From an uncultured Dehalococcoidales bacterium (GTDB lineage Bacteria > Chloroflexota > Dehalococcoidia > Dehalococcoidales > CAZFRL01): a DNA stretch of 51,293 nucleotides. The stretch lies in contig CAZFRL010000004.1 in assembly GCA_964521325.1 (NCBI GenBank), positions 1 to 51,293 of the forward strand. Reading direction: 5' to 3'. The notes beneath the pieces were generated by a model. That model ran no database searches and was not told where the DNA came from. It was given only the letters and a program-made list of their open reading frames with translations. Made by a program: the position numbers and the translations under genes. This document shows positions 27,052 to 51,112 of the stretch, piece after piece (position 1 is the first letter of the stretch; the number at the start of each line of letters is the position of its first letter).

Positions 27052-27927
27052 TCAAGTGCTCACCTTGACTGGCTCCTGCTTGATACCACTAATCTTCTCC
27101 CTTAAAGCTACAGCCAAAGTGCTTGGACCGCCATGAACCCCTAGGGCTGGTCCCAGTCTGGCAAGATGGATCTGCCTCTTATCAAAGATAGAACCTATGC
27201 GCTCCTTGAGTGAACTTGCCTCATCAGGTGTAGTGCTGTGCACAATAGCCACTTCTTGAATACTCAAGGCATCCTTTACAAAATTGAATAGACGCTCGAT
27301 GCCTTTAGCACGGGTGCGAGCTAAGCCAGCAGGTAAAAACTCACCATCACGAAAAGTAAGCAGCGGCTTTACACTAAGTACGCTGCCCAATAATGCCTTC
27401 GCTTTACCAATTCGCCCTCCCAGAAGCAGGTATTTAAGGGTATCAAAAACACCAAGCAAATGTGTGCGAGGGATAGCCTGACATACCTCTTCCATTACCG
27501 CCTGCAAGCTTTCTCCAGCCTCAGCCAGTCTAGCAGCAGCCATGGCTATCAGCCCTAGTCCCATAGATACTGAAAACGAATCTACTACCTCGATACGGCA
27601 CCCTGCCCTAACTAGCTCCCTGCCCTGAAGGGCTGAATTGTAGGTGCCACTTGTCTTGGAGGAAAGGTGAATAGAGACTATTTCATTGGTCTCCTTAGAT
27701 AGCTGGCGGTAGGTATTGGCAAAATCGGCTGGTGTCGGCTGGGAGGTAGAAGGATGGGTAGAACCCTCCGCTAATTTTTGATAAAATTCATCACAGCTTA
27801 TATCCACCCCATCCCGGTAGACCTCTTGTCCAAAGCGGACATAAACCGGCACCACCGTAATTCCCAACTTTTTAGCCACCTCAGATGGCAAATCAGCAGT
27901 GCTATCGGTAACAATCTTAACTGTCAT
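27052..27927 (-). CDS. DegV/FakB fatty-acid-binding protein (copy 1)
   Basis: TVKIVTDSTADLP, STSQPTP, SSKTSGTY, LLGGRIG, GVHGGP. Confidence 0.93.
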   Translation of the reverse strand: MTVKIVTDSTADLPSEVAKKLGITVVPVYVRFGQEVYRDGVDISCDEFYQKLAEGSTHPSTSQPTPADFANTYRQLSKETNEIVSIHLSSKTSGTYNSALQGRELVRAGCRIEVVDSFSVSMGLGLIAMAAARLAEAGESLQAVMEEVCQAIPRTHLLGVFDTLKYLLLGGRIGKAKALLGSVLSVKPLLTFRDGEFLPAGLARTRAKGIERLFNFVKDALSIQEVAIVHSTTPDEASSLKERIGSIFDKRQIHLARLGPALGVHGGPSTLAVALREKISGIKQEPVKVST

Positions 27928-27956
27928 AAAATCTCCTCACCTCAGTATATTAATTA

Positions 27957-28796
27957 CTATTTATCGCCCAATATAGCTACTAACAGGAGACCCGGTCCGG
28001 TATGCGTCCCGATTACTGGGGTCGCCTTTGAGCGGTAGATACGCTCTTTAGGGAATATGGAGCCAAGCCGCTCAACAAGCCTATCAGCATCATCAGGACA
28101 GGCAGTATCTTCCACCGCCATCTCCTCAATATTGGAATAGCTCGCAGCAAAGTTATATAGATGCTCTATTGCCTTAGCCCGAGAGCGCTCCTTGCCAGCA
28201 GGCGCGACCACGCCATCTTTCAGGGTTATAAGGGGATTTATCTTAAACATTGACCCCATAAGAGCCTGTGCCCGGCCAATACGACCGCCCCTTCTGAGGT
28301 ATTCCAGAGTATCGAAAGCGGAAAGAAAATCCACACGAGGAATGGTCTTTCGGGCTACATCTATCACCTCATCAAGGCTAGCTCCAGCCTGAGCTGCATT
28401 AGCTGCCTTCATAGCTATAAAGCCCTCTGCCATAATAGCCGATAGTGTATCAAATACTTCTACCCGGCATTTCCGCTTCATTAACTCTATACTTTGTAAC
28501 GCCACCTCATAGGTTGCACTGAGCTTGGAGCTAACCATGATGGCAAGAATTTCATCCGTCTCTTCAGCCAGCTTGTCATATGCCTCAGCGAAGGTTCCAG
28601 GCGATGGCACTGAAGTGACCGGCAGGATTTTGCTGTGCACTAACCTATCGTAAAACTGCTCACTGGTCAGGTCAATGCCATCACGATAGGTCTCTTCCCC
28701 AAAGCTAACATTTAGTGGAATTACTGTAAGCCCCAACTCTTTAACCATCTGGGGTGGTAAGTCAGAGACGCTATCGGTAACAATTTTGACCGTCAT
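27957..28796 (-). CDS. DegV/FakB fatty-acid-binding protein (copy 2)
   Basis: TVKIVTDSVSDLP, TSVPSPG, SSKLSATY, LRRGGRIG, GTHTGPG. Confidence 0.93.
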   Translation of the reverse strand: MTVKIVTDSVSDLPPQMVKELGLTVIPLNVSFGEETYRDGIDLTSEQFYDRLVHSKILPVTSVPSPGTFAEAYDKLAEETDEILAIMVSSKLSATYEVALQSIELMKRKCRVEVFDTLSAIMAEGFIAMKAANAAQAGASLDEVIDVARKTIPRVDFLSAFDTLEYLRRGGRIGRAQALMGSMFKINPLITLKDGVVAPAGKERSRAKAIEHLYNFAASYSNIEEMAVEDTACPDDADRLVERLGSIFPKERIYRSKATPVIGTHTGPGLLLVAILGDK

Positions 28797-28831
28797 TAAT
28801 AATCTCCTGTCTTACTTCAAGTTAACCGCTA

Positions 28832-29671
28832 TTATTTTTCGCCTAATACAGATATCGCCAAGACATGGGGACCAACGTGCGTGCCCACCACCGGACTAAC
28901 CTTGGACCGGTAGATACGCTCTTTGGGAAATTTAGCGCCAAGCCGCTCAGCCAGCATCTCGGCATCGTCAGGGGTGGTAGCATCCTCTATTGCCATCTCC
29001 TCAATATGGGAGTAGCTCGTAGCAAAGTTATGCAAGTCCTCTATTACTTTAGCTCGAGACCGCTCCCTGGCGACAGGATAAGCCTCACCCTCTTTTAAGG
29101 TAAGGATGGGGCTCACTTTAAGTATTGACCCCAGAAAAGCCTCCGCTCGGCCGATGCGCCCCCCCTTTTTGAGATAATCCAAGGTGTCAAAGGCGAAACG
29201 AATATCCACTCGTGGTATATTGTTTCGGGTTATATCTATCACCTCATCAAGTTTAGCTCCAGCCTTAACTGTCTTGGCAGCAGCAATAACTATCAGCCCC
29301 TCAGCCATACAACCCAATATAGAATCAACTACTTCTACCCGGCACTTTCGCTTCGTTAGCTCAATAGCTTGTAGCGCCGCCTCATAGATGCCACTGAGCT
29401 TATGGGAAACGGTAATAACCAAGATTTCGTCGGTCTCTTCAGCCAGCTTATCATATACCTCAATAAAGGTGCTAAGCGGTGGCACTGCTGTAGTCGGTAA
29501 GGTCTTGCTGTGCGTCAGTTTATTGTAGAACTGCTCACTGGTCAGGTCAATACCATCGCGATAGATCTCTTCTCCAAAGCGAACATTTAGCGGAATTAAT
29601 GTAATCCCCAGCTCCTTAGCCACCTGAGGTGTCACGTCAGAAACACTATCGGTAACAATTTTGACCGTCAT
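28832..29671 (-). CDS. DegV/FakB fatty-acid-binding protein (copy 3)
   Basis: TVKIVTDSVSDV, SHKLSGIY, LKKGGRIG, GTHVGP. Confidence 0.93.
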   Translation of the reverse strand: MTVKIVTDSVSDVTPQVAKELGITLIPLNVRFGEEIYRDGIDLTSEQFYNKLTHSKTLPTTAVPPLSTFIEVYDKLAEETDEILVITVSHKLSGIYEAALQAIELTKRKCRVEVVDSILGCMAEGLIVIAAAKTVKAGAKLDEVIDITRNNIPRVDIRFAFDTLDYLKKGGRIGRAEAFLGSILKVSPILTLKEGEAYPVARERSRAKVIEDLHNFATSYSHIEEMAIEDATTPDDAEMLAERLGAKFPKERIYRSKVSPVVGTHVGPHVLAISVLGEK

Positions 29672-29685
29672 TAAAATCGTCCCTA

Positions 29686-31338
29686 TTATTCTATAGAAAT
29701 AATATAGTTGTAATGAGGCTGACCGCCTTGAACTACATCAATCTGAAGCTGAGGGTGCTGCTCACGAATACCGACACTAACCTGCTCTGCCTCAGCCGGC
29801 TCGGTATCAGCCCCATAGTAGATGGTAATTATTTCGGCTTGACCTAAATCTACCTTAGCTAACACCTGACTAAGAACATCAATGGCATTATCACCTACGG
29901 CTACCAGGTCCCCGTCGAGGAGGCCGATAGCCTGTCTCTTCTTAATCACTAACTCACCTAGCCGGGTAGAGCGCACTGCCCGAGTAATTTCAATCGACTT
30001 CACTGCTGATTTTGCCTCTCCCATAATTTGAACATTTGTGTCAAGATCGGCATCGTAGTCAAAGGCTAAAAGGACAGTTACCCCCTGTGGAATTGTTTTG
30101 GTGGGTACCACTTTAACCGTCTTGGTAGTTAAGGACTGAACCTGCTCAGCGGTAAGCACTATATTTTTGTTATTAGGTAAAATAATAACCTTATCTGAAG
30201 CTACTGATTCTATAGCTTGGAGCAAATCCTTGGTGCTTGGATTCATTGTCTGTCCTCCAGGGACAACGGCTGTCGCCCCCAGGCTCTTAAAAACGTTACT
30301 GAGCCCATCCCCAGAGACTACAGCAATAGTAGCTATATCGACTGCTGGCGCTCTCTCCTTTTGCATTTCCAGAAAGTCCTGGTGCTGCTCATCCATATTC
30401 CGAACTGATACCTGATGCATAGTACCTAACGAGGTAGCATAGCGAAGAACATTGCCGGGGTCTATGGTATGAATATGGACTCTAACTGTAGATTCATCAC
30501 CAACTACAATTAGAGACTGCCCTTTCTTCTTCAGCTTTATTTTAAACTTATCCGGGTCAAGCCCTTCTCCCTTAAGCAGAAACTCGGTGCAGTATCCATA
30601 GGGCACCTCATCTGCTGCCATCATCTGTGGCGTCCTCACAGTTAATGGTATGCTACTGCTAATTATCCATGGTTTGCGGAACTGCAGTTGTTCCGTCTCG
30701 CCTTTAAGGTAGTGGAGAGCACCCTCCAGGATGGTATATAGACCCTGCCCACCGGCATCCACTACCCCAGCCTCCCTCAACACAGGCAGGAGGGTAGGGG
30801 TATTAGCCACTGACTCGCTGGCAGCTCTAACTATAATCTCCATAACCGACAGTAGGTTATCATCGCCACTAGTAGCTTGTGCCTGGGCAGCCGAGGCGGC
30901 TTCTCTAACTACGGTGAGAATCGTTCCCTCCACGGGATTGCTTAACCCGTTATAAGCCGTCTTTGATGCTTGGAGTAAGGCATCAGCTAAATCACTGCCG
31001 GTGAATGATTCCTTTTCCGCCAGACCTTGGGCTAAACCACGCCAAATCTGCGACAGGATTACCCCGCTGTTACCCCGAGCCCCCATCAGTGCTCCCTTGG
31101 CTATAGCTTGAGCCACAGCTGAAGCACTTCGGTCAGGAGCCCGATAGGACTCCTCTATACTAGAACGCATAGTAAGCAGCATATTAGCCCCGGTATCACC
31201 ATCAGGCACCGGGAAAACATTCAGAGCATCAATATCTGAGGCGTTCTTCTCCAACCAACCAGTAGCTGCAGAAAACATCTCCCTTAAATCTTGGCCAGTG
31301 ATAGATTTGACTTGCCTCATATTAACCATCCTTGCCAA
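29686..31338 (-). CDS. DAK2-domain fatty acid kinase subunit A (YloV/FakA)
   Basis: NVFPVPDGDTGANM, GARGNSGVILSQ, VVDAGGQG, YGYCTEF, GGQTMNPS, GGQPHY. Confidence 0.95.
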   Translation of the reverse strand: MARMVNMRQVKSITGQDLREMFSAATGWLEKNASDIDALNVFPVPDGDTGANMLLTMRSSIEESYRAPDRSASAVAQAIAKGALMGARGNSGVILSQIWRGLAQGLAEKESFTGSDLADALLQASKTAYNGLSNPVEGTILTVVREAASAAQAQATSGDDNLLSVMEIIVRAASESVANTPTLLPVLREAGVVDAGGQGLYTILEGALHYLKGETEQLQFRKPWIISSSIPLTVRTPQMMAADEVPYGYCTEFLLKGEGLDPDKFKIKLKKKGQSLIVVGDESTVRVHIHTIDPGNVLRYATSLGTMHQVSVRNMDEQHQDFLEMQKERAPAVDIATIAVVSGDGLSNVFKSLGATAVVPGGQTMNPSTKDLLQAIESVASDKVIILPNNKNIVLTAEQVQSLTTKTVKVVPTKTIPQGVTVLLAFDYDADLDTNVQIMGEAKSAVKSIEITRAVRSTRLGELVIKKRQAIGLLDGDLVAVGDNAIDVLSQVLAKVDLGQAEIITIYYGADTEPAEAEQVSVGIREQHPQLQIDVVQGGQPHYNYIISIE

Positions 31339-40857: not shown

Positions 40858-41080
40858 GTATTTGGTGATGGTGTAGATTGATTTCGAAGCGGGCTCCCTG
40901 TACACTTTCACTTTCGGACTTCTAAACTATTTCTGACCCTGATGTTGAGTTGAGGCTTGATATGGCAGAGGTTACAATGAATAGAGACGGGGCAGAAGTT
41001 TGAATCCTGGTGGAGGGAGCCATTTTGCTTTTTCCAAATCTGACAGATGTAAAATCTGGCGGAACTTTTATAAAGGTGAG

Positions 41081-42202
41081 ATGGCATTGAAGTTTGTCCG
41101 AGCGGGAGAAACATTGGAACTGCAGCCAAATTGTCACACGACAGCGATGGGCATTATGCCCCACACTGATGTGGGGCAGGCTCTGAAGCTTACCCTTAGT
41201 GTAGACATACCTTTCTGGCCTCAATTGCCTAATATTAGCTTCTATGAAGACATGTATGTCCAGACATCACAGAACTTCCCGGGGATAGTTATTGACCTTA
41301 GTGGTGAAAAAATCAGCTTCAATACGGCAAAATTTGAAAGGGAGCTAGGTCATTATTCCCGGAAGATGGCTGAGCCGGAAACCTTCGCCTTAAGCCGTAG
41401 ATATTCGGCGGTTTATCATAGGTTCCTAGCTGAAGACCTGCAGGACTATCCTGCCATTCGGGGGCAGGTAACCGGGCCGGTAAGCTTCGGCTTCAGAGTA
41501 ACTGATGAAGAGTCAAAACCCATTATCTATAACGACGGGGTCAGGTCTCTACTCTTTGATTTCATCCAACGGAAAGTCAACACCCAGTACCGACAACTCA
41601 GGGGGAAGAACCAAAGTGCCTTTGTCTGGCTTGATGAGCCCGGGCTCGGATGGGTTTTCAGCGGTCTCTCCGGTTACAACGATGTTCAGGCTAAACAAGA
41701 GTATCACAGCTTCCTGGCTGGACTTGAGGGACCCATGGCACTGCACCTCTGTGCCAATGTCAACTTGCCGTACCTTCTCGAGTTGGGTGTTAAGCTTCTA
41801 TCCTTTGATGCCTATCAGATTGAACTCATGCCCAAAGGGTATGCCAATACTGTTGCTGACTTCCTCAGCAGTGGCGGCATTATCTCATGGGGCATCGTAC
41901 CCACTGACTCAGAAAGCCTCAGCAAGGAAACTCCGGAGACATTAGCCAGATTGCTTCTGGGTTACTGGGACGTAGTATCTCTGAACACTGGTTTATCAGT
42001 TAAGGGGATTGCTGAGCAAGCCTTAATTGCGCCGGCGAGATGCTGTCTCAAAAATGTAGGGCGAGTTGGTGCCAGCGAGGATACAACTGCCGACGAAACC
42101 AGGGGAGACCCTAACTTCACGGTCGAGGAACGGTTAGTTGAAAGGGCATTTGCTTATCTGAAGACACTTTCTGAAATCCTCAAGAATAAATTTGACTTGT
42201 GA
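41081..42202 (+). CDS. Core (single-barrel) cobalamin-independent-type methionine synthase-like protein
   Basis: FWPQLP, GQVTGP, WLDEP, Zn ligands LHLC and APARCC; only one MetE barrel; ATG 41081 with AAGGTG SD. Confidence 0.7.
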   Translation: MALKFVRAGETLELQPNCHTTAMGIMPHTDVGQALKLTLSVDIPFWPQLPNISFYEDMYVQTSQNFPGIVIDLSGEKISFNTAKFERELGHYSRKMAEPETFALSRRYSAVYHRFLAEDLQDYPAIRGQVTGPVSFGFRVTDEESKPIIYNDGVRSLLFDFIQRKVNTQYRQLRGKNQSAFVWLDEPGLGWVFSGLSGYNDVQAKQEYHSFLAGLEGPMALHLCANVNLPYLLELGVKLLSFDAYQIELMPKGYANTVADFLSSGGIISWGIVPTDSESLSKETPETLARLLLGYWDVVSLNTGLSVKGIAEQALIAPARCCLKNVGRVGASEDTTADETRGDPNFTVEERLVERAFAYLKTLSEILKNKFDL

Positions 42203-42297
42203 CTCTGAGAGGGGTCAAGCATCTATCTTGCGCTCACTCTAGTGCCATATAGCATAATATCATTAAAAATTTAGCTTAAAAAGTGTCTGGGGAAATA

Positions 42298-42326
42298 TTG
42301 ACAGATGGTGGATTTGGGTCTACTAT
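42298..42326 (+). promoter_or_regulatory. sigma70 promoter ~310 nt upstream of ferritin/Fe-S cluster
   Basis: TTGACA-17 nt-TACTAT. Confidence 0.6.
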
Positions 42327-42411
42327 TTCCCTTACCCTATTGGTCTTAGTAGACATCGACAACTGAATATAAGTAAAATATTTAAGTAACTCTCGGAGTG
42401 GAGAAGCGGTT

Positions 42412-42483
42412 ATGTTCTTTGCAGAAGTTCCGCCTTACCGGGTAGGTTATTGTAAGGTAATCACTGGTCGAGGTATCCACTAG
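42412..42483 (+). CDS. Candidate 23-aa leader peptide (uORF)
   Basis: GGAG 8 nt before the ATG; MFFAEVPPYRVGYCKVITGRGIH*; ends 7 nt before a terminator hairpin. Confidence 0.35.
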   Translation: MFFAEVPPYRVGYCKVITGRGIH

Positions 42484-42490
42484 AGTACTG

Positions 42491-42532
42491 AGAGATGCCA
42501 GCCAAAGTGAAGGTTGGCATCTCTTGCTTTCT
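42491..42532 (+). terminator. Terminator/attenuator hairpin in leader
   Basis: AGAGATGCCAGCC-8 nt-GGTTGGCATCTCT 13-bp stem (one G-U) followed by TGCTTTCT. Confidence 0.6.
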
Positions 42533-42637
42533 GGAGGGATTGTTGTGCCTTGTTTATAAATATGACAAAGGGGTCTTAGAGATTTAGCTGCTTAAGGCAT
42601 CAGAGGCTCAGCGGATAAATAACATCTAGGAGGTAAT

Positions 42638-43135
42638 TTGAAAATGTCTATCCTTTTCTCAGGCAGCGAACTTCTAGAAATAGCTCTAGGTATAGAGAGG
42701 AACGGCACAGCCTTCTATGAGGCTTTGGCTGATAAGGCACAGAATAAGGAGGCTAAGGCTATCTATGATTATCTGGCTAATGAGGAGAAGAAACATCTGG
42801 ATACTTTTCAGGGCATGCTAAATACGGTAGGCTCATATAAACCTCCGGAAGATTATGCCGCAGAATATATGCTTTACCTGAAATCATTAGTTGACAGCTC
42901 GGTTTTTTCCAACATCACCGAGGCTCGACAAAAAGCTGAGAAGTCATCCGGTGAAACCGAAGTCCTTGATACCGGAGTTCAAGCCGAAAAGGATTCTATA
43001 CTTTTCTACACAGAAATGCTGAACTTCGTGAGGCAGCCTGACCAAAAGATAGTTCTCAATATAATAGATGAAGAAAAAGCCCACATAAGACAGCTTTCCC
43101 AACTTAAACAAAGGCTGCAAAAAAACGCTAGATAA
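42638..43135 (+). CDS. Ferritin-like/rubrerythrin-family di-iron protein
   Basis: IERNGTAFY, EEKKH, AEKDSILFY, EEKAH; AGGAGG SD (start 42638 TTG or 42644 ATG). Confidence 0.88.
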   Translation: MKMSILFSGSELLEIALGIERNGTAFYEALADKAQNKEAKAIYDYLANEEKKHLDTFQGMLNTVGSYKPPEDYAAEYMLYLKSLVDSSVFSNITEARQKAEKSSGETEVLDTGVQAEKDSILFYTEMLNFVRQPDQKIVLNIIDEEKAHIRQLSQLKQRLQKNAR

Positions 43136-43233
43136 TTCCCTGGGGTGAAACAGGGGGACATAAAAGTTTGTTCTAATAATATGGAGGCTAGAGTTAAAAC
43201 TAGATGCTATCTTTAGCCGAGTAAAGGAGAATC

Positions 43234-44100
43234 ATGCAGCTTAAGGGGAGTAAAACTGAGGAAAATTTGCGGAAGGCTTTTGCTGGAGAATTACAAGCCC
43301 AGGCTAGTTACATTTATTTTGCTTCTGCTGCCGAGGAAGCAGGCTTTGAAGAAATAGCTGATGTGTTTTTGGCAACGGCTGAAAACGAGGCTGAGCATGC
43401 GAAGCATGAGTTTATGTTCCTTGGTGGTGCTGAGGATGTCAGGGCAAATTTAGCTTTGGCGGTTGAGCGTGAGTATAAGGAGGCAACCAAGTTTTACCCA
43501 GAGGCGGCGGAGGTAGCTAGAGAGGAGGGCTTTGCTGAGATTGCCGACTTCTTTCACCGGATGAGCAAGGTTGAGGAGAAGCATAACGGAAACTTTCGCA
43601 AATTACTTGAGACATTGGACAAGGGCAAAACTTTTCAAGGAAGGACGGTGGGGTATTCGGCAGTTGAGATGGCACAGGTGATGTTACCTGATCAGGCTAA
43701 TCCGGCGGGATTTGTCCATGGTGGGGAGTTGATGAAGTTGATGGATAATGCTGCCGGTGTAGTAGCTGCCCGCCATAGCCGGGCTAATATCGTGACCGGA
43801 AGGGTAGAGAATATCATTTTCCATAACCCGGTGCGTGTCGGTAGCCTGGTCATCATCCGTGGCAAGATTACTTTCACTAGTCGCTCGACTATGGAGGTTC
43901 AAATAGAAGTCGAGACTGAAGACCTCCGTGATGGGAGGAAGCTTCATGCATTAACTGCCTATTTTATTATGGTAGCCCTGGATGCTGAGGGGAAATCGGC
44001 GGAGGTGCCATCACTTCTACTTAGTACTGAGGAAGAGGGAAGACTTTTTAATGAAGCCCAGGCAAGATATAAAGCCCGAAAAGTGAAATCTGAAAAGTGA
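43234..44100 (+). CDS. Rubrerythrin di-iron domain fused to hotdog acyl-CoA thioesterase
   Basis: LKGSKTEENLRKAFAGE, ENEAEH, EEKH, then MLPDQANPAGFVHGGELMKLMDNAA and FHNPVRVG in one frame. Confidence 0.85.
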   Translation: MQLKGSKTEENLRKAFAGELQAQASYIYFASAAEEAGFEEIADVFLATAENEAEHAKHEFMFLGGAEDVRANLALAVEREYKEATKFYPEAAEVAREEGFAEIADFFHRMSKVEEKHNGNFRKLLETLDKGKTFQGRTVGYSAVEMAQVMLPDQANPAGFVHGGELMKLMDNAAGVVAARHSRANIVTGRVENIIFHNPVRVGSLVIIRGKITFTSRSTMEVQIEVETEDLRDGRKLHALTAYFIMVALDAEGKSAEVPSLLLSTEEEGRLFNEAQARYKARKVKSEK

Positions 44101-44114
44101 AAGGGAATGAACTG

Positions 44115-44645
44115 ATGGAAAACGAACAGGATAAAACTCTAGAAGCACTCCAAATTGCTATCCAGATGGAAATTGATGGCAAGGAATTTTATCTGAAAGC
44201 TAGCCAGGAAAGCGGGAATGAACTAGGCAGGAAGCTGCTGGAGTCACTGGCTACTGAGGAAGACATCCACCGGCAGAAGTTTGAGGAGATATATAGTGCT
44301 ATCCGAAATAAAAGAGCTTGGCCTAGAACTGATTTTCAACCTAACGGGGGCAGAAGATTGAGAACTATATTTGCCAGGGCAACCGAGGAGATTGGCGCGG
44401 ATGTAAAGGCTCCCGCTACTGAGCTCGATGCCGTAAAAACAGCCATGGATATGGAAAATAAAACCTTTGATTTTTATAAGAGCCGGGGGGAAAATGCTGC
44501 TTATGATACTGAGAGAGACTTTTATGAGACCCTGGCTGCCGAAGAGAGGGAACATCACCTAGTTCTGCTTGACTACTACGAATATCTCAAAGACCCGGCA
44601 AGTTGGTTTGTCACCAAAGAACATCCCTCTCTGGATGGTGGCTGA
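44115..44645 (+). CDS. Ferritin-like/rubrerythrin-family protein
   Basis: MEIDGKEFY, EEDIH, MENKTFDFY, EEREH; ATG 44115 preferred over GTG 44097. Confidence 0.87.
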   Translation: MENEQDKTLEALQIAIQMEIDGKEFYLKASQESGNELGRKLLESLATEEDIHRQKFEEIYSAIRNKRAWPRTDFQPNGGRRLRTIFARATEEIGADVKAPATELDAVKTAMDMENKTFDFYKSRGENAAYDTERDFYETLAAEEREHHLVLLDYYEYLKDPASWFVTKEHPSLDGG

Positions 44646-44673
44646 ATAAGGCTCAAAGATTGTGGAGTAGAAA

Positions 44674-45858
44674 ATGAGAAAGGTTTACCTAGACAATGTT
44701 GCCACCACTCCAATATTGCCCGAAGTGATGGAGGCTATGCTGCCTTATCTCAAGGAGATTTATGGCAATCCTCAATCCCTGCACGGTTGGGGAGATGAAG
44801 CCAGGGAAGCGATAGAAGGTGCCCGGGAGAAAGTGGCAGACCTCATTGGTGCTCAGGCAGAGGAGATTATCTTTACCTCCAGCGGCACTGAGTCGAACAA
44901 CTCCGCTATTAAAGGACTGGCGATGGCCCAGCAATCTAAGGGTAAGCATATCGTCGTTTCCGCTATCGAGCACTTCTCGGTATTGCACTCAGCCAGAACC
45001 CTGGAGAAGTGGGGCTTCGAGATGACCCAGGTTCCGGTGGACAAGCATGGAATGGTGAATCCCGATGAAGTAGCCCGAAGCCTCAGGAAGGACACGGTTC
45101 TTGTCTCCATCATGCACGCCAACGGTGAGGTGGGTACTATCCAGCCCATCGCTGAGATAGCAAAGGTAGCGAAGGAAGCTGGGGCTATCTTCCACACTGA
45201 TGCTGTAGCTACCGTGGGCACAATACCTGTCGATGTCAAAGAACTTGGGGGCGATGCACTGAGCTTGGCTGCTAATCAGTTCTATGGACCTAAGGGAGTT
45301 GGTGCTCTCTGGCTCAAGAAGGGGACGCGCATCATCCCCTTCCTTGACGGTGGTGTACAGGAGGGAGGGCGGAGGGCTGGAACCGAGAATGTGCCTGCAA
45401 TCGTAGGCTTAGGGAAGGCTGCCGAACTGGCCAAAGCAGAGATGGGGTCAAGGGTGAACCGCCTCTCAGCCCTGCGCGACAGGTTGATCAAAGGCTTACC
45501 GTCTCGAATCGAGCACGTGGTCCTCACCGGACATCCCAGCCAGCGCCTCCCCGGAAATGCCAGCTTCTGTATCAAGTTCATCGAAGGAGAGGCAATGCTA
45601 ATGCTTCTCTCTAGCCAGGGTGTCGCCGTCTCCAGCGGCTCGGCTTGCACCTCCAGGGCGCTGAAGGCATCTCATGTCCTCACTGCTATGGGGATTCCCC
45701 CTGAGATAGCGCAGGGCTCACTGCTCTTCAGCTTTGGTCTGGGGAATACTGAGGAGGATGTTGACTATGTATTAGAAGCGCTACCGCCCATTGTGGACAG
45801 GCTGCGGCAGATGTCACCACTATATGCCAAATTCCTGAAAGGAAAGGGAGGGAAATGA
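44674..45858 (+). CDS. iscS: IscS/NifS-type cysteine desulfurase homolog lacking PLP lysine
   Basis: [46 protein letters not shown]; the HK position reads NQ. Confidence 0.92.
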
Positions 45859-45859
45859 G

Positions 45860-46276
45860 ATGCCTATTTACAACGAGAAAGTAATGGAGCACTTCATGAA
45901 TCCCCGCAATGTGGGTGAGATAGAGGATGCTGACGGTGTCGGCGAGGTGGGTAACCCCGTTTGCGGGGACATGATGACCTTTTACATCAAGGTGGACGAT
46001 AACCGTCTCAGTGATGTGAAGTTTAAGACCTTCGGCTGCGGGGCGGCCATTGCTGTCTCCAGTATTGTGAGTGAGATGGCTATGGGGAAGACACTGGAGG
46101 AGGTGAGAAAGATTACCCCGGCATTGGTAGCTGAGGAGCTGGAGGGGCTGCCCAAGAACAAGTATCACTGCTCCAACCTCGGTGCTCAAGCCTTGAATAA
46201 GGCTATCGATGACTACCTAAAGAGGCAGGGCAAAGTAGCGAAAAGGAAAAAAGGGGGGAAAGATGAGAAGAAATGA
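45860..46276 (+). CDS. iscU: Fe-S scaffold IscU/NifU-N
   Basis: NPRNVG, GNPVCGD, FGCGAAIA, LPKNKYHCS. Confidence 0.93.
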   Translation: MPIYNEKVMEHFMNPRNVGEIEDADGVGEVGNPVCGDMMTFYIKVDDNRLSDVKFKTFGCGAAIAVSSIVSEMAMGKTLEEVRKITPALVAEELEGLPKNKYHCSNLGAQALNKAIDDYLKRQGKVAKRKKGGKDEKK

Positions 46277-46460
46277 AGAACCAAGGGAAAAGGAGGGGAA
46301 GTGTTTTTGTCCCTACTGTGAAGAGGAGCTGGTCATGGCTGCTCTACCTTACTGCCAGCCCTGTGGCGTGACCCTGCGCTACTGCATTAATTGCCAGATA
46401 GCAGTGGCAAGGGAGGCGGAGGTCTGTCCCCAGTGCGGGGGCAAGCTAGAATGGAAGTAA
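46263..46460 (+). CDS. Double zinc-ribbon small protein
   Basis: Four CxxC pairs (CPYC, CQPC, CINC, CPQC) in 65 aa; overlaps the iscU stop. Confidence 0.75.
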   Translation: MRRNEEPREKEGKCFCPYCEEELVMAALPYCQPCGVTLRYCINCQIAVAREAEVCPQCGGKLEWK

Positions 46461-46471
46461 GGAGGGCGGCT

Positions 46472-46948
46472 ATGCCAGAAAAGGTTACTCTGGTGGTATT
46501 CAGCGGGGAGATGGACAAGGCCCTGGCCGCCTTCAACATAGCTATTGGTGCTGCTGCCATGGGGATGGAGGTGAGCATGTTTTTTACCTTCTGGGGGCTA
46601 AATATCATCAGGAGGAATGAGGGCTCAACCAAAAGTCGGGGGATGATGAGGAAGATGCTCAATTTTATGAACCGAGGTGGCTCCAAGAGATTACCCCTAT
46701 CCCGATTCCACATGCTCGGCCTGGGTAAGTGGATGATGGGAAAGTTAATGCAGGATGCCAAGTTTCCCTCTCTCGATGAGTTAATAGCTACTGCCCGGGA
46801 GTCGGGGGTTAAATTTATAGCCTGCACTACCTCTATGGCGATTATGGGAATCTCCAAGGAGGCTTTCATCCCTGAGGTGGATACCTTTGCTGGGGTGGCT
46901 ACCTATCTAGCTGAGGCTAGAGAGGGGAAGGTCAATCTGTTTGTTTAA
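46472..46948 (+). CDS. DsrE/DsrF/DrsH-like sulfur carrier
   Basis: VTLVVFSGEMDKA, FFTFWGL, IACTTSMAIMG; AAGGAGG SD before ATG 46472. Confidence 0.87.
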   Translation: MPEKVTLVVFSGEMDKALAAFNIAIGAAAMGMEVSMFFTFWGLNIIRRNEGSTKSRGMMRKMLNFMNRGGSKRLPLSRFHMLGLGKWMMGKLMQDAKFPSLDELIATARESGVKFIACTTSMAIMGISKEAFIPEVDTFAGVATYLAEAREGKVNLFV

Positions 46949-46960
46949 GGAGATAGAGCT

Positions 46961-47191
46961 ATGAAGGCGGATGCCACTCTTGACTGCATCGGATTATATT
47001 GTCCCATGCCCATTGCCCACACCGCCAAAAAACTCGAGGAGCTGGAAGTAGGGCAGGTATTGGAGGTCCTGGCTGATGACGAGGGTATTAAGGAGGACAT
47101 GCCTGCTTGGTGCCGTACCACGGGAAATGAGCTGTTAGGTATTGAGGAAGAAGGTGGAGGATACAAGGTTTATATCAGGAAATCCAAGTAG
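46961..47191 (+). CDS. tusA: Sulfurtransferase TusA family
   Basis: LDCIGLYCPMP, GQVLEVLADD, DMPAWC. Confidence 0.9.
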   Translation: MKADATLDCIGLYCPMPIAHTAKKLEELEVGQVLEVLADDEGIKEDMPAWCRTTGNELLGIEEEGGGYKVYIRKSK

Positions 47192-47257
47192 GAAGTAAGA
47201 CTGAGTGGAATCCAGCGAAGAAAAATTCATGTGAATAACCTTTACTAGGGGTGAGAG

Positions 47258-47944
47258 ATGAATCTTAAGGCTCTATATAAGTTAGGTTACGGTCTGTATG
47301 TAGTAAGCTCAAGGAAGGGAGACAAACTCAATGGGCAAATCGCCAACACCGTGTTTCAAGTTACCTCTGAGCCGCCGACTATTGCCGTAAGCATCAACGA
47401 AGATAACCTAACCCATGAGTTTATTAAAGAAAGCGGAGTGTTTGCTGCTTCTGTCTTGTCTCAGGATACTCCCCTCTCTTTTATCGGTCACTTTGGTTTC
47501 AAGTCAGGTAGAGATATAGATAAACTGGAGGGCATTAACTATAAAATAGGTGAAACGCAAGCCCCTGTAGTTACTGATAATACCTTGGCTTATCTGGAAG
47601 CCAGGGTGGTTCAGGCAGTAGATGTGGGAACACATACTATTTTTGTAGGCGAGCTTGTGGGAGCCGATGTTCTTAGAGAAGGCGAGCCTATGACCTATGC
47701 CTATTATCATCAGGTCAAGCGGGGCACCACTCCCAAGACTGCCCCGGTTTATGTTGAGGAGGAAAAGATGGAAGCTATTAAAGCACCGAAGTACAGGTGC
47801 ACCGTTTGTGGTTATGTCTATGACCCAGAACTGGGAGACCCGGACGGTGGCATCGCCCCAGGGACACCATTTGAAAAAATACCTGATGACTGGGTGTGTC
47901 CTGTCTGCGGGGCGGCTAAGAGTGAGTTTGAAAAGATAGAATAA
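47258..47944 (+). CDS. Flavin reductase-rubredoxin fusion (high-molecular-weight rubredoxin)
   Basis: [26 protein letters not shown], then CTVCGYVYD...DDWVCPVCG. Confidence 0.9.
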
Positions 47945-47961
47945 AAAGGGGGTAAAAAAAT

Positions 47962-48339
47962 ATGACAGTACAAAAGCAGGTCTATAGGTGTAATGTTTGC
48001 GGTAATATAGTTGAAGTATTACATGTCGGAAAAGGGGAATTGGTCTGTTGCGGACAGCCCATGGAGTTGCTCCAGGAGAAAACAGCAGACGTTGGTCTGG
48101 AAAAGCATGTCCCTGTCGTAGAAACGAGCGATAGAGGAACAAGAGTCAAGGTTGGTGACGTTCCTCACCCCATGGAGGAAAAGCACTACATAGAGTGGAT
48201 TGAGTTAATCACTGACGGCGATGGTTGCCGAAAGTTTCTCAAGCCTGGCGATAAGCCGGAAGCAGAGTTTGAAGTCGGGCCACGTAAGGTAACCGCCAGG
48301 GAGTATTGCAACATCCACGGCTTGTGGAAATCCAGCTAA
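47962..48339 (+). CDS. dfx: Desulfoferrodoxin (superoxide reductase)
   Basis: [26 protein letters not shown]. Confidence 0.95.
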
Positions 48340-48359
48340 AAATTTTACACTAATAAATA

Positions 48360-48962
48360 ATGGAGGTGATAAAAATGATGGTAGTAGATAGGTTAGCCCC
48401 CGATTTTGAGGGAACTGCTTACCTTGATGGCAAGGTACAGAAGATAAGATTGTCTGATTATAGGGGGGAATGGGTTTTAGTTTGCTTCTACCCGGGAGAT
48501 TTCACCTATGTTTGTGCCACTGAGGTTGCCGGGATAATCAGGAACTACGAGAACTTAAGGCAATTTGGCGGGCGGGGTATAGCTATAAGCGCTGACTCTA
48601 TTCATTCGCACAAGGTTTGGGCAGAAACCAGCCCAGCCATAACCACTGCCCTAAAAGAAACGGGTAGAAAGTTTCCCCCGATGCCTATGGTTGCTGACCC
48701 AACCTTTGAGATAGGCAGGAAGTACGGGGTTGTTGATGAGGAGACGGGTGTTGAAACCAGAGGTAGATTCATCGTAGACCCTGATGGGATAGTAAGAGGT
48801 TATGAAGTCTTGAATGCTACTGTAGGCAGGAATCTGGAGGAGACCTTCAGACAGCTACAAGCCTTCAAATTTGTCAGGGACACAAGAAAGGTTACTCCAG
48901 CAGGATGGAAACCAGGCGAAGAGGGAATAGAGCCAACGATAGAAAATGCTGGTAGAATTTAG
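48360..48962 (+). CDS. Peroxiredoxin (AhpC/TSA, PrxU-like, no resolving Cys)
   Basis: YPGDFTYVCATE peroxidatic motif; RGRFIVDPDG; C-terminal VTPAGWKPG. Confidence 0.9.
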   Translation: MEVIKMMVVDRLAPDFEGTAYLDGKVQKIRLSDYRGEWVLVCFYPGDFTYVCATEVAGIIRNYENLRQFGGRGIAISADSIHSHKVWAETSPAITTALKETGRKFPPMPMVADPTFEIGRKYGVVDEETGVETRGRFIVDPDGIVRGYEVLNATVGRNLEETFRQLQAFKFVRDTRKVTPAGWKPGEEGIEPTIENAGRI

Positions 48963-48990
48963 TTAAAAATCAGTCAATGGAGGTGAAAAA

Positions 48991-49284
48991 ATGGACTTCA
49001 GTAATCCTTTTGGAACTGTGGTGCCCCGAAAGATGAATGCCAATGAGCTAGCCAGGGCTATAATGCAGGATATAGCTGCCGAGCTGGATGCTGTTGCTCT
49101 CTACCAGGCTCATATTGACGCTACCGACGATGAGCGGGCTAAGAAAGTGCTAGCTCACGCTCGGGATGATGAAAAAGAGCATGCCGGGGAATTTCTGGCA
49201 CTACTGGAGATTCTCGACCCCAAGCAGGCGGAATACATCAAGAAGGGGAAGGTAGAGATTGCTGAATTATTAGAGGGAAAGTAG
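48991..49284 (+). CDS. Short ferritin-like protein (EncFtn/Flp-like)
   Basis: AELDAVALY, HARDDEKEHAGEFL; 97 aa half-bundle. Confidence 0.75.
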   Translation: MDFSNPFGTVVPRKMNANELARAIMQDIAAELDAVALYQAHIDATDDERAKKVLAHARDDEKEHAGEFLALLEILDPKQAEYIKKGKVEIAELLEGK

Positions 49285-49402
49285 TCCTATTAGTGGCTCA
49301 CTGGTCAAAGGCTTTGATTCTTGGGGGTACTAATGTATGTTGGCTTTAAAGCAACTCCCCATCTGAACTGCGAAGCGTAGTAAGCAAAGGGCATCTTAAC
49401 TG

Positions 49403-51112
49403 CTAACTTCGGCCAAACTCTTTTTCTAACTGCCCTGAGCTTAAGTGAATCATCGTTGGTCTGCCATGGGGACAGGTATGAGGAATAGCTACCTGCTCCA
49501 GCTGCCGTATTAGTTCACGCATTTCGTCATCGGTTAACACCTGCCCGGCCCTCACTGCACTGTGGCAAGCCATAGATATAGCTATACCTTCTGCCCAGTC
49601 ACTCCCCCCCGATAAGGAGTCCAGTAATTCCCGCAGCATCCCCGCCCAGTCTTTGTTATAAAGTAAAGCTGGCACTGTCCGGACTAGATAGGTCCTGTCA
49701 CCAAAAGGCTCGATAGAGAAGCCAAATTCAGTCAGATTTTCATAATTTGATTTCAGAACTTCCGCCTGTTTGGGATTAACCTCAAATGTCATCGGCTCAA
49801 GCAGTCCCTGAACCTCTATTTCTTGCTGTGACCTCTGGTGCTTAATCTTCTCAAAAAGGACACGTTCATGGGCGGCATGCTGGTCAATAAGATATAATCC
49901 ATCACCACCCTCAGCTATAATATAGCTGTTAGATAGCTGACCTATTACCCGTAGAATGGGTAGAGATACCGCTGGAGTCTGGGGAGATACTGGTGGCAAG
50001 GTGCCAGGACTACTAATCCCGGCTGATGTCCACAATTCTTGCCTTGGCGGTGGGGGAGAAACATAGGCTGTAGCTACCTCCTCAATTTTGGGCACCGGTA
50101 CTTGCTCAATTAAAGCCCGGCGTACTGTCCTCTGGACGGTGGTAAAAATCATATGTTCATGGTGAAATTTCACCTCAGTCTTGGTCGGATGAATATTAAC
50201 ATCTATCTGCTCCGGTGGTAGTGAAATATTGACAATAGCAATAGGATGTTTCCCTACCATCAAAAGCCCGTGGTAAGCCTCTTCTACTGCCCGAGCCAGC
50301 AGACGGCTATTTATCCAGCGGTGGTTAATAAAGGAGCTAAGGTAACCTCTGCCTGAGCGGCTTATCGCCGGTGAGCCGACCATGCCGGCTACTACAGGCG
50401 ATGAAGCCTCCGCCTGTCTCTCCCAGCCTCCATCCCCACTCTTAATTTCCAGCATGTTCTGGGCTACCTCAACACCATAAACCTCAATTATGCTATCTAT
50501 TAGCCGACCATTGCCCGGTGTTCGCAGTGCCTGCCTGCCATCAATAAGCAGGGTAAACTTAACCTCGGGAAAGGCGAGGGCATATTGAGTTACCACGTTA
50601 GCTATGTGACTGTTTTCCGTAGCCCGCGACTTGAGGAACTTTAGTCTGGCTGGCACCTTGCGGAAGAGATTGTGCACTGTAACCGTAGTCCCTTGAGAGC
50701 GCCCGTGACTTTCCTTATTTTCAACCACGCCATCGGTCACAGTAAGGGAAGTGCCTACTGATTCACCAACAGCACCGGTAACAATATCCACCTTGGCTAC
50801 AGCCGCTATGCTAGGTAACGCCTCACCACGAAAGCCGAGGCTGTTTATTGACTCCAAATCCTCGAGATTGCCTATCTTACTGGTAGCATATCGTTCAAAG
50901 GCAAGTTCCACCTCCTCAGATGGAATGCCAACTCCATTATCCGTCACCCGAATCAAGCTTACCCCACCACCCCTCACCTCGATAGCAATCTGGCTGGCAC
51001 CAGCATCCAGTGAATTCTCCACCAGCTCCTTTACCACCGAGGCTGGTCTCTCTACCACTTCACCAGCGGCAATCCTTGATACTATCTTGGGGTCTAAAAC
51101 TTTAACTGGCAT
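49403..51112 (-). CDS. mutL: DNA mismatch repair endonuclease MutL
   Basis: KELVENSLDA, GFRGEAL, DVNIHPTK, DQHAAHERVLFE, CPHGRP. Confidence 0.97.
   Translation of the reverse strand: MPVKVLDPKIVSRIAAGEVVERPASVVKELVENSLDAGASQIAIEVRGGGVSLIRVTDNGVGIPSEEVELAFERYATSKIGNLEDLESINSLGFRGEALPSIAAVAKVDIVTGAVGESVGTSLTVTDGVVENKESHGRSQGTTVTVHNLFRKVPARLKFLKSRATENSHIANVVTQYALAFPEVKFTLLIDGRQALRTPGNGRLIDSIIEVYGVEVAQNMLEIKSGDGGWERQAEASSPVVAGMVGSPAISRSGRGYLSSFINHRWINSRLLARAVEEAYHGLLMVGKHPIAIVNISLPPEQIDVNIHPTKTEVKFHHEHMIFTTVQRTVRRALIEQVPVPKIEEVATAYVSPPPPRQELWTSAGISSPGTLPPVSPQTPAVSLPILRVIGQLSNSYIIAEGGDGLYLIDQHAAHERVLFEKIKHQRSQQEIEVQGLLEPMTFEVNPKQAEVLKSNYENLTEFGFSIEPFGDRTYLVRTVPALLYNKDWAGMLRELLDSLSGGSDWAEGIAISMACHSAVRAGQVLTDDEMRELIRQLEQVAIPHTCPHGRPTMIHLSSGQLEKEFGRS

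Follow-up and report, generated by a model that had tools for sequence, protein, structure and literature searches.

A lysine-less IscS-like protein encoded with IscU, TusA and DsrE-family proteins in a Dehalococcoidales bacterium: a candidate inactive relative of type I cysteine desulfurases

We examined a gene for an IscS/NifS-like protein on contig CAZFRL010000004.1 of an uncultured Dehalococcoidales bacterium, within a stretch of 51,293 nucleotides referred to throughout as the window. The gene is followed on the same strand by genes for an IscU/NifU-N scaffold, a small protein with four CxxC pairs, a DsrE-family protein and a TusA sulfur carrier (Table 1). An earlier note on this DNA had claimed that Asn-Gln stands in the place of the His-Lys pair of IscS and NifS, with CAG as codon 202, and that the mobile-loop cysteine, Cys325 within SSGSACTS, is intact; translation in the frame of the open reading frame (ORF) bears out each of these points, with AAT (Asn) at codon 201 and CAG (Gln) at codon 202. 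At this site E. coli IscS (translated from NC_000913) has His205-Lys206, 9wep, of all solved structures the closest (E 1.3e-144), shows SFSAHKMYGPKG, and His-Lys is found in all 96 of the Lys-containing representative relatives that we compared.

Table 1. Features of the lysine-less IscS locus and of loci compared with it. Positions are those of the window unless another locus is named; residue positions in the last column follow E. coli IscS numbering, with counts for 78 lysine-less bacterial loci and 96 Lys-containing (canonical) representatives.
Feature	Position	Strand	Basis or comparison
Lysine-less IscS/NifS-like protein, 394 residues	44674-45858	+	Class-V aminotransferase fold; Pfam Aminotran_5 (PF00266), E 7e-82
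Gly151	45124-45126	+	Asn155 position: Gly or Ser 68/78 lysine-less, Asn 95/96 canonical
Ala179	45208-45210	+	Gln183 position: Ala 74/78 lysine-less, Gln 96/96 canonical
Ala199	45268-45270	+	Ser203 position: Ala 74/78 lysine-less, Ser 87/96 canonical
Asn-Gln, codons 201-202 (AAT CAG)	45274-45279	+	His205-Lys206 (PLP phosphate and Schiff-base) positions
Asn201	45274-45276	+	His205 position: Asn 73/78 lysine-less, His 96/96 canonical
Gln202	45277-45279	+	Lys206 position: Gln 70/78 lysine-less, Lys 96/96 canonical
Cys325 (TGC), mobile-loop cysteine, putative persulfide carrier or cluster ligand	45646-45648	+	In SSGSACTS
Lys331, clade-specific lysine, six residues past Cys325	45664-45666	+	Glu334 position
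Leu351	45724-45726	+	Arg354 position: Leu or Val 75/78 lysine-less, Arg 96/96 canonical
IscU/NifU-N scaffold, 138 residues	45860-46276	+	Pfam NifU_N, E 3e-47; start 1 nt past the IscS stop
65-residue protein, four CxxC pairs, double zinc ribbon	46263-46460	+	Pfam DZR, E 2e-6; overlaps the IscU stop
DsrE-family protein (PF13686)	46472-46948	+	Pfam DrsE_2, E 1e-53; likely start ATG 46472
TusA sulfur carrier, 76 residues, Cys14-Pro-x-Pro	46961-47191	+	Pfam TusA, E 4e-27
Three rubrerythrin-like genes	42638-44645 (42638-43135, 43234-44100, 44097-44645)	+	Pfam; directly upstream of the IscS-like gene
Flavin reductase-rubredoxin fusion, desulfoferrodoxin, peroxiredoxin, EncFtn-like genes	47258-49284	+	NCBIfam, Pfam; downstream of the module; gaps 17-66 nt
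400-residue ORF	41000-42202		No Pfam or NCBIfam match
Three tandem DegV-family paralogues beside a FakA-like (Dak2) gene	27052-31338	-	Expanded fatty-acid kinase system
Canonical NifS paralogue (SxHK, DAVQ), locus L012	1003-2169		
Canonical NifS paralogue (SxHK, DAVQ), locus L022	3136-4308		
Canonical NifS paralogue (SxHK, DAVQ), locus L061	6896-8062		
Oxygen-defense genes, archaeal contig L088	909-4318		Beside the module

By fold the protein belongs with the type I desulfurases. Against the NCBIfam model TIGR03402 (FeS_nifS) it scores 530.8 bits, exactly at the cut-off of 530.75, and its AlphaFold2 (AF2) model has a predicted local distance difference test score (pLDDT) of 95.1, with low values only at residues 327-329 of the Cys loop. 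Foldseek matches this model to NFS1 and to the IscS of Archaeoglobus fulgidus and of E. coli, the latter also in complex with TusA, with template modeling scores of 0.92-0.96, and the root-mean-square deviation from A. fulgidus IscS is 1.1-1.5 Å. As modeled, the IscS fold is complete, its Cys loop is flexible and the dimer-type architecture is intact. The nearest solved structures (9wep, 9wew, 9wer, 9wfe, 9wf8, 9wfb and 9wfy) are seven near-identical chains of 406 residues described as 'cysteine desulfurase', with a handful of differences close to the cofactor site; His-Lys is kept in the alignments of 9wep, 9wew and 9wer.

The Asn-Gln pair is a fixed and selected trait of a clade rather than a chance event, since independent assemblies, close homologues, related loci and the substitution pattern all agree. 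Contigs from four independent metagenome runs, from salt marsh and marine sediment, span the site, and positions 45274-45279 are unchanged in all of them. The 120 best homologues share 82-99% identity with the protein, and the handful of named entries are Dehalococcoidia or Dehalococcoidales metagenome-assembled genomes (MAGs); in this set residue 202 is Gln in 116 and Glu in four, and residue 201 is Asn in 118 and Ser in two. The lysine is likewise absent from all 80 related loci found in species-representative genomes, by a scan tilted toward such forms, and an unbiased all-against-all HMMER comparison of representatives at 50% identity places about 25 lysine-less clusters, with many different replacements, among the 150 nearest. 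The reading frame is intact, the ratio of nonsynonymous to synonymous substitution rates (dN/dS) against three orthologues is 0.07-0.08, and the gene is under strong purifying selection. Short metatranscriptome contigs from relatives 95-99% identical cover parts of the IscS-like, IscU, zinc-ribbon and DsrE genes, a weak indication of expression given the possibility of DNA carry-over.

In structures of IscS and NifS, the internal aldimine with pyridoxal 5'-phosphate (PLP) is formed by Lys206 (E. coli numbering), which also serves as the base; Arg354 binds the carboxylate of the substrate, and contacts to the ring and phosphate of the cofactor come from His104, Asp180, Thr76 and Thr243'. Comparison of 78 lysine-less bacterial loci with the 96 Lys-containing representatives shows replacements at Lys206 and at five further positions (Table 1), and at the position of Arg354 all 120 close homologues have Leu. 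The sequence therefore lacks not only the Schiff-base lysine of the SxHK motif of type I cysteine desulfurases but also their Arg354, Gln183 and Asn155 contacts. By contrast, His104, Asp180, Thr76, Thr243, Asn35 and Cys328 are invariant or nearly so in both groups; the cofactor contacts correspond to H100, D176, T72 and T237 of the window protein, and the loop cysteine, its Cys325, is Cys in all 78 lysine-less loci and in all 120 close homologues. Because six positions are replaced, whereas the residues that hold the cofactor stay, as does the loop cysteine, the alignment says that catalytic and substrate residues are gone and the cofactor-holding ones are retained, and on this comparison the loss of the lysine is one part of a coordinated remodeling of the active site. 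The positions through which E. coli IscS contacts IscU (E309, E311, L386) are conserved, as is the C-terminal tail. Near the loop, one residue has been gained: Lys331 is Lys in 96% of the lysine-less loci and in all 120 close homologues, at a position where most canonical relatives have an acidic residue, Glu or Asp.

In the proteins encoded by the genes that follow, the key residues are essentially invariant. The IscU scores 192.6 bits with NCBIfam TIGR03419 (NifU_clost), above the cut-off, and 68-70 of the aligned loci keep its ligands C35, D37, C60 and C104. All eight Cys of the 65-residue zinc-ribbon protein are kept in 54-55 of its 55 relatives; this protein might bind Zn as a ribbon or, as a rubredoxin-like Fe(Cys)4 protein, donate electrons or iron to the module. 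The ATG of the DsrE-like protein is preceded by a strong ribosome-binding site (AAGGAGG), and its single Cys is kept in 45 of 45, as is Cys14 of TusA in 66 of 66. In 62 related loci the downstream sequence reaches 2.6 kb or more; there the lysine-less IscS has TusA as a neighbor in 58, IscU in 56, the zinc-ribbon gene in 44 and a DsrE_2-type gene in 39. The module recurs across several bacterial phyla and in archaea, and its gene order varies: a Nitrospirae module runs from an Rrf2 (IscR-type) regulator through IscS (with His-Arg at the Asn-Gln site), IscU and TusA to DsrE, and that of Odinarchaeum LCB_4 runs TusA, DsrE, IscS (Asn-Ser), IscU.

In the few controls with both or with canonical proteins, which are consistent, TusA goes with the lysine-less protein. 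In Methanosarcina acetivorans only the lysine-less pair (IscS1-IscU1) has DsrE and TusA neighbors. Three Dehalococcoidia MAGs (loci L012, L022 and L061) also carry a canonical His-Lys NifS paralogue, at 1-3 kb upstream of the lysine-less copy; IscU and TusA follow the lysine-less copy and not the canonical one, and no IscU homologue was detected adjoining the canonical paralogue in these three loci. The canonical gene of L012 is followed by an ORF of 357 residues (AIR-synthase-like by eye), one of 142 residues and a small ferredoxin-like ORF. A canonical protein elsewhere, P0137, has an IscU neighbor and no TusA. The earlier note had suggested a check for another Lys-containing desulfurase or SufS: the window holds no second class-V enzyme (tblastn with three canonical paralogues and the query) and no Suf genes, and the three MAGs just described are the relatives with a canonical copy nearby. 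In E. coli, TusA docks on helix alpha2 of IscS, at Trp45 and Glu49 (PMC2854127). The corresponding positions are Asp or Glu in 68 and 63 of the 78 lysine-less proteins and mostly basic or neutral in canonical ones, and this acidic alpha2 patch, which resembles the E. coli docking site, is suggestive only.

Inactive IscS is known, with both structure and biochemistry, from A. fulgidus: this protein has Asp199 in place of the lysine and no desulfurase activity, and its Cys ligates a [2Fe-2S] cluster on IscU(D35A) (PMC7585200, PMC8918507). What the earlier note had said of it (Asp for Lys, inactivity, ligation of the cluster on IscU) holds against these papers and the PDB titles, to which it should be added that the wild type and the D199K variant both still hold pyridoxamine 5'-phosphate (PMP) non-covalently (PMC8918507). 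The pseudo-desulfurase that the note had proposed gains in strength from the five further PLP or substrate positions that are replaced clade-wide, three of them as in A. fulgidus IscS.

On balance we think it probable that the window protein is a catalytically dead homologue of type I desulfurases that partners IscU, with sulfur coming from sulfide or from persulfide on TusA or DsrE. We infer the loss of activity from the six near-invariant positions that are replaced, three of which, together with the loss of the lysine, parallel the inactive, PMP-bound A. fulgidus IscS; we infer the partnership with IscU and the sulfur carriers from synteny in 62 loci and from the invariant carrier and ligand cysteines, and the direction and source of the sulfur are deduced in the same way. 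The protein keeps its fold, its IscU-binding surface and Cys325, and it probably still binds a B6 cofactor, non-covalently and in a structural role, while it would be unable to form the internal aldimine or to hold cysteine as a substrate. Cys325 would then carry persulfide to the nascent cluster on IscU, ligate that cluster, or do both. Its sulfur might be free sulfide or, as we favor, sulfane sulfur borne by TusA and the DsrE-family protein, along a route from DsrE/TusA-SSH to Cys325 of the IscS-like protein and on to IscU. In some relatives a neighboring canonical NifS may charge these carriers. For the delivered persulfide of the earlier note, the near-constant TusA and DsrE neighbors add circumstantial support.

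More tentatively, and with less than even confidence, we propose that the lysine-less IscS-IscU-TusA-DsrE module, joined in Dehalococcoidia by the four-CxxC protein, could form a distinct and widespread cysteine-independent line of Fe-S assembly in anaerobic Bacteria and Archaea, in which sulfane sulfur would pass from DsrE/TusA through the loop cysteine to IscU on an oxygen-stress-protected route of cluster assembly or repair. If true, such a line would answer the question of the sulfur source left by A. fulgidus IscS, and the frequent placement of the module among rubrerythrin, desulfoferrodoxin and peroxiredoxin genes would mark an oxygen-stress route for clusters.

Several observations weigh against the main interpretation, that of a desulfurase-dead partner of IscU. 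The 80-locus scan used six search patterns, one of which was ANQFYGPK, and this biases the set toward lysine-less forms; the set of canonical contexts that serves as a control is small. In overall similarity the window protein itself lies nearer to a Lys-containing structure, with a score of 485 bits, than to A. fulgidus IscS, with 405 bits. Synteny gives no direction, which cannot be read from gene order, and in E. coli sulfur runs from IscS to TusA. Some lysine-less loci have TusA and lack IscU, and beside one lysine-less protein, P0125, there is neither IscU nor TusA. Since A. fulgidus IscS still binds PMP or PLP, chemistry based on the cofactor is formally conceivable, and Lys331 is the sole clade-specific gain near the Cys loop.

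One alternative is that the module is a TusA-centered persulfide relay that does not primarily serve Fe-S clusters, supplying instead the sulfur for tRNA thiolation, molybdopterin or thiamine, with the IscS-like protein as an adaptor sulfurtransferase and the IscU, where there is one, as a SufU-like sulfur acceptor. The E. coli IscS-TusA-TusBCD (DsrEFH-like) system is just such a relay for tRNA thiolation. TusA is, moreover, the most constant neighbor (58/62, against 56/62 for IscU), and TusA without IscU stands beside the lysine-less protein in L068, L070, L073, L075 and L082, the first four of which have TusA or DsrE without IscU; in L082 and L083 an A. fulgidus-like protein (Asn-Asp at the Asn-Gln site) has its start within the end of the TusA gene, with no IscU nearby. 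We nevertheless consider this relay unlikely, as the IscU keeps all of its cluster ligands, including Asp37, and fits TIGR03419 above the cut-off rather than SufU, the Nitrospirae module is preceded by an Rrf2/IscR-type regulator, no MnmA, TusE, MoaD or ThiI is found among the annotated genes of the window, nor TusE/DsrC nearby, and the A. fulgidus IscS-IscU pair binds a [2Fe-2S] cluster (PMC7585200, PMC8918507).

The protein might, alternatively, still be a cysteine desulfurase or some other PLP enzyme, working through non-covalent PLP or PMP or with Lys331 in the place of Lys206. Retention of H100, D176, T72 and T237, of PMP by A. fulgidus IscS (PMC8918507), and of Lys331 in 96-100% of the clade, where most canonical relatives lack it, would all fit such an enzyme, but R354, N155, Q183, S203 and H205 have been lost along with the lysine, and A. 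fulgidus IscS, with the same pattern, is inactive, holds PMP rather than PLP even with the lysine restored in D199K (PMC8918507), and has no lysine at the 331 position. We regard residual desulfurase or PLP chemistry as very unlikely. There is also only a slim chance that the protein is a regulatory pseudoenzyme, forming heterodimers with a canonical NifS or IscS or competing with it for IscU and TusA so as to tune sulfur flux: the canonical paralogues of L012, L022 and L061 and the intact dimeric fold of the model would allow it, but most loci have no canonical paralogue within 10 kb, the IscU and TusA neighbors belong to the lysine-less copy, and the strict conservation of Cys325 argues for a chemical role. 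Finally, an error of sequencing or assembly, or a pseudogene in decay, is conceivable in that H-to-N and K-to-Q each need only one nucleotide change, but this is ruled out for practical purposes by the same codons in four independent assemblies, a lysine loss common to about 200 homologues including the close ones, and an intact frame with a dN/dS of about 0.08.

The lysine-less family reaches well beyond the Chloroflexota. Members occur in MAGs labeled Chloroflexota, Nitrospirae, Deltaproteobacteria/Smithella, Planctomycetes, Elusimicrobia, Omnitrophota, Actinomycetota and Eubacteriales, and also in a Latescibacteria/Gemmatimonadota/Zixibacteria cluster and in Asgard archaea. A neighbor-joining (NJ) tree on all columns places one bacterial and one archaeal lysine-less clade apart from each other. 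When seven active-site columns were masked, in a subset of taxa, exact-split bootstrap values were very low, at 2/200 for the bacterial, 12/200 for the archaeal and 0/200 for the joint group. With masking, the bacterial lysine-less proteins are nearest to other lysine-less proteins, with few exceptions, and therefore make up a coherent family, whereas the nearest neighbors of the archaeal ones are mixed. The trees do not separate a common from an independent origin of the bacterial and archaeal proteins, a further point against the main interpretation; the presence of the module in both domains could reflect common origin with inter-domain transfer, or parallel loss. One protein within the bacterial lysine-less NJ clade, P0122, keeps His-Lys; its residue at the Gln183 position is Ala, its Cys loop is altered (TASASTCTM), and it might represent an intermediate state or a reversion.

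In the window, the module belongs to a series of twelve genes on one strand, spaced no more than 98 nt apart, on what is otherwise an ordinary Dehalococcoidia chromosome (rpoBC, arginine biosynthesis genes, recG, ruvB, smpB, mutL). The gaps that follow the three upstream rubrerythrin-like genes are 98, -4 and 28 nt, and downstream of TusA come further genes of oxygen defense (Table 1). On an archaeal contig, L088, the module similarly follows genes for rubredoxin, an ODP/flavodiiron-like protein, desulfoferrodoxin, ferritin and rubrerythrin, and these flanks in the window and L088 hint at co-regulation with oxidative stress. A scan for consensus promoters and terminators over 42100-49500 gave nothing above shuffled expectation, and HscAB, IscA and Fdx are absent among the annotated genes of the window. 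The middle rubrerythrin-like gene encodes a rubrerythrin/ferritin-like domain fused to a 4HBT (hotdog thioesterase) domain, 288 residues in all, and full-length matches to it (65-73% identity) adjoin a lysine-less IscS in L040, L041, L044, L048 and L051. Further upstream, the 400-residue ORF has a 61% identical homologue in L002, where it precedes the module by about 4 kb. The reverse strand carries three tandem DegV-family paralogues beside a FakA-like gene.

Public annotation names the lysine-less proteins 'IscS subfamily cysteine desulfurase' or 'cysteine desulfurase', and for this reason reconstructions of the metabolism of Dehalococcoidia and other sediment anaerobes assign them an activity that is very probably absent. 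The inactive IscS, known from one solved archaeal protein and noted in one methanogen, emerges here as a large family under strong selection, and its near-obligate pairing with TusA and DsrE offers a concrete candidate for the sulfur donor. A literature search of open-access scope found no bacterial lysine-less IscS and no interpreted IscS-IscU-TusA-DsrE cluster.

Among known systems, A. fulgidus IscS2 (AF_0564; PDB 4hvk, 4eb5, 4eb7 and 4r5f), described as an 'inactive cysteine desulfurase paralog', resembles the window protein: its Schiff-base lysine is replaced, its loop cysteine is kept and IscU is its partner. The sequence of 4eb5 is 49% identical to the window protein in pairwise alignment, and both have Ala, Asn and Leu where E. 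coli IscS has Gln183, His205 and Arg354. The archaeal protein differs in having Asp at Lys206 (Asn-Asp, where the window protein has Asn-Gln) and in keeping Ser203 and Asn155. Sulfide has been proposed as the source of sulfur for its cluster, a source still open in a 2022 review (PMC8918507).

M. acetivorans IscS1 also lacks the catalytic lysine (His-Thr), and its cluster, MA0807-MA0810, resembles the window in gene content, with DsrE-superfamily and SirA/TusA-like genes in the order IscS1-IscU1-DsrE-SirA (PMC7585200). It differs from the window protein in keeping His205 and Arg354 in the published alignment, and it too is archaeal; the authors, in whose hands IscS1 was insoluble on expression, gave no interpretation of the DsrE and TusA neighbors (PMC7585200). 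The MIS system (MisS-MisU) and clostridial-type NifS-NifU share with the window a two-gene core of a NifS-like protein and a single-domain NifU-like protein (PMC13066941), in the window unaccompanied by HscAB, IscA or Fdx among the annotated genes, TIGR03402 and TIGR03419 being the best models for the core of the window. MisS, however, is described as a cysteine desulfurase (PMC13066941), whereas the window protein lacks the residues for that reaction.

The E. coli IscS-TusA-TusBCD system (PDB 3lvj) likewise brings together an IscS-type protein, a TusA with Cys-Pro-x-Pro and proteins of the DsrE/TusD family, here encoded together. In the E. coli relay an active IscS charges TusA, whereas the window IscS-like protein is predicted to be unable to form a persulfide from cysteine, and if it cannot, the flow of sulfur would have to start elsewhere. 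Taken together, these comparisons suggest that the window protein is a bacterial member of a kind already known from archaea, and they make its association with TusA and DsrE a new lead.

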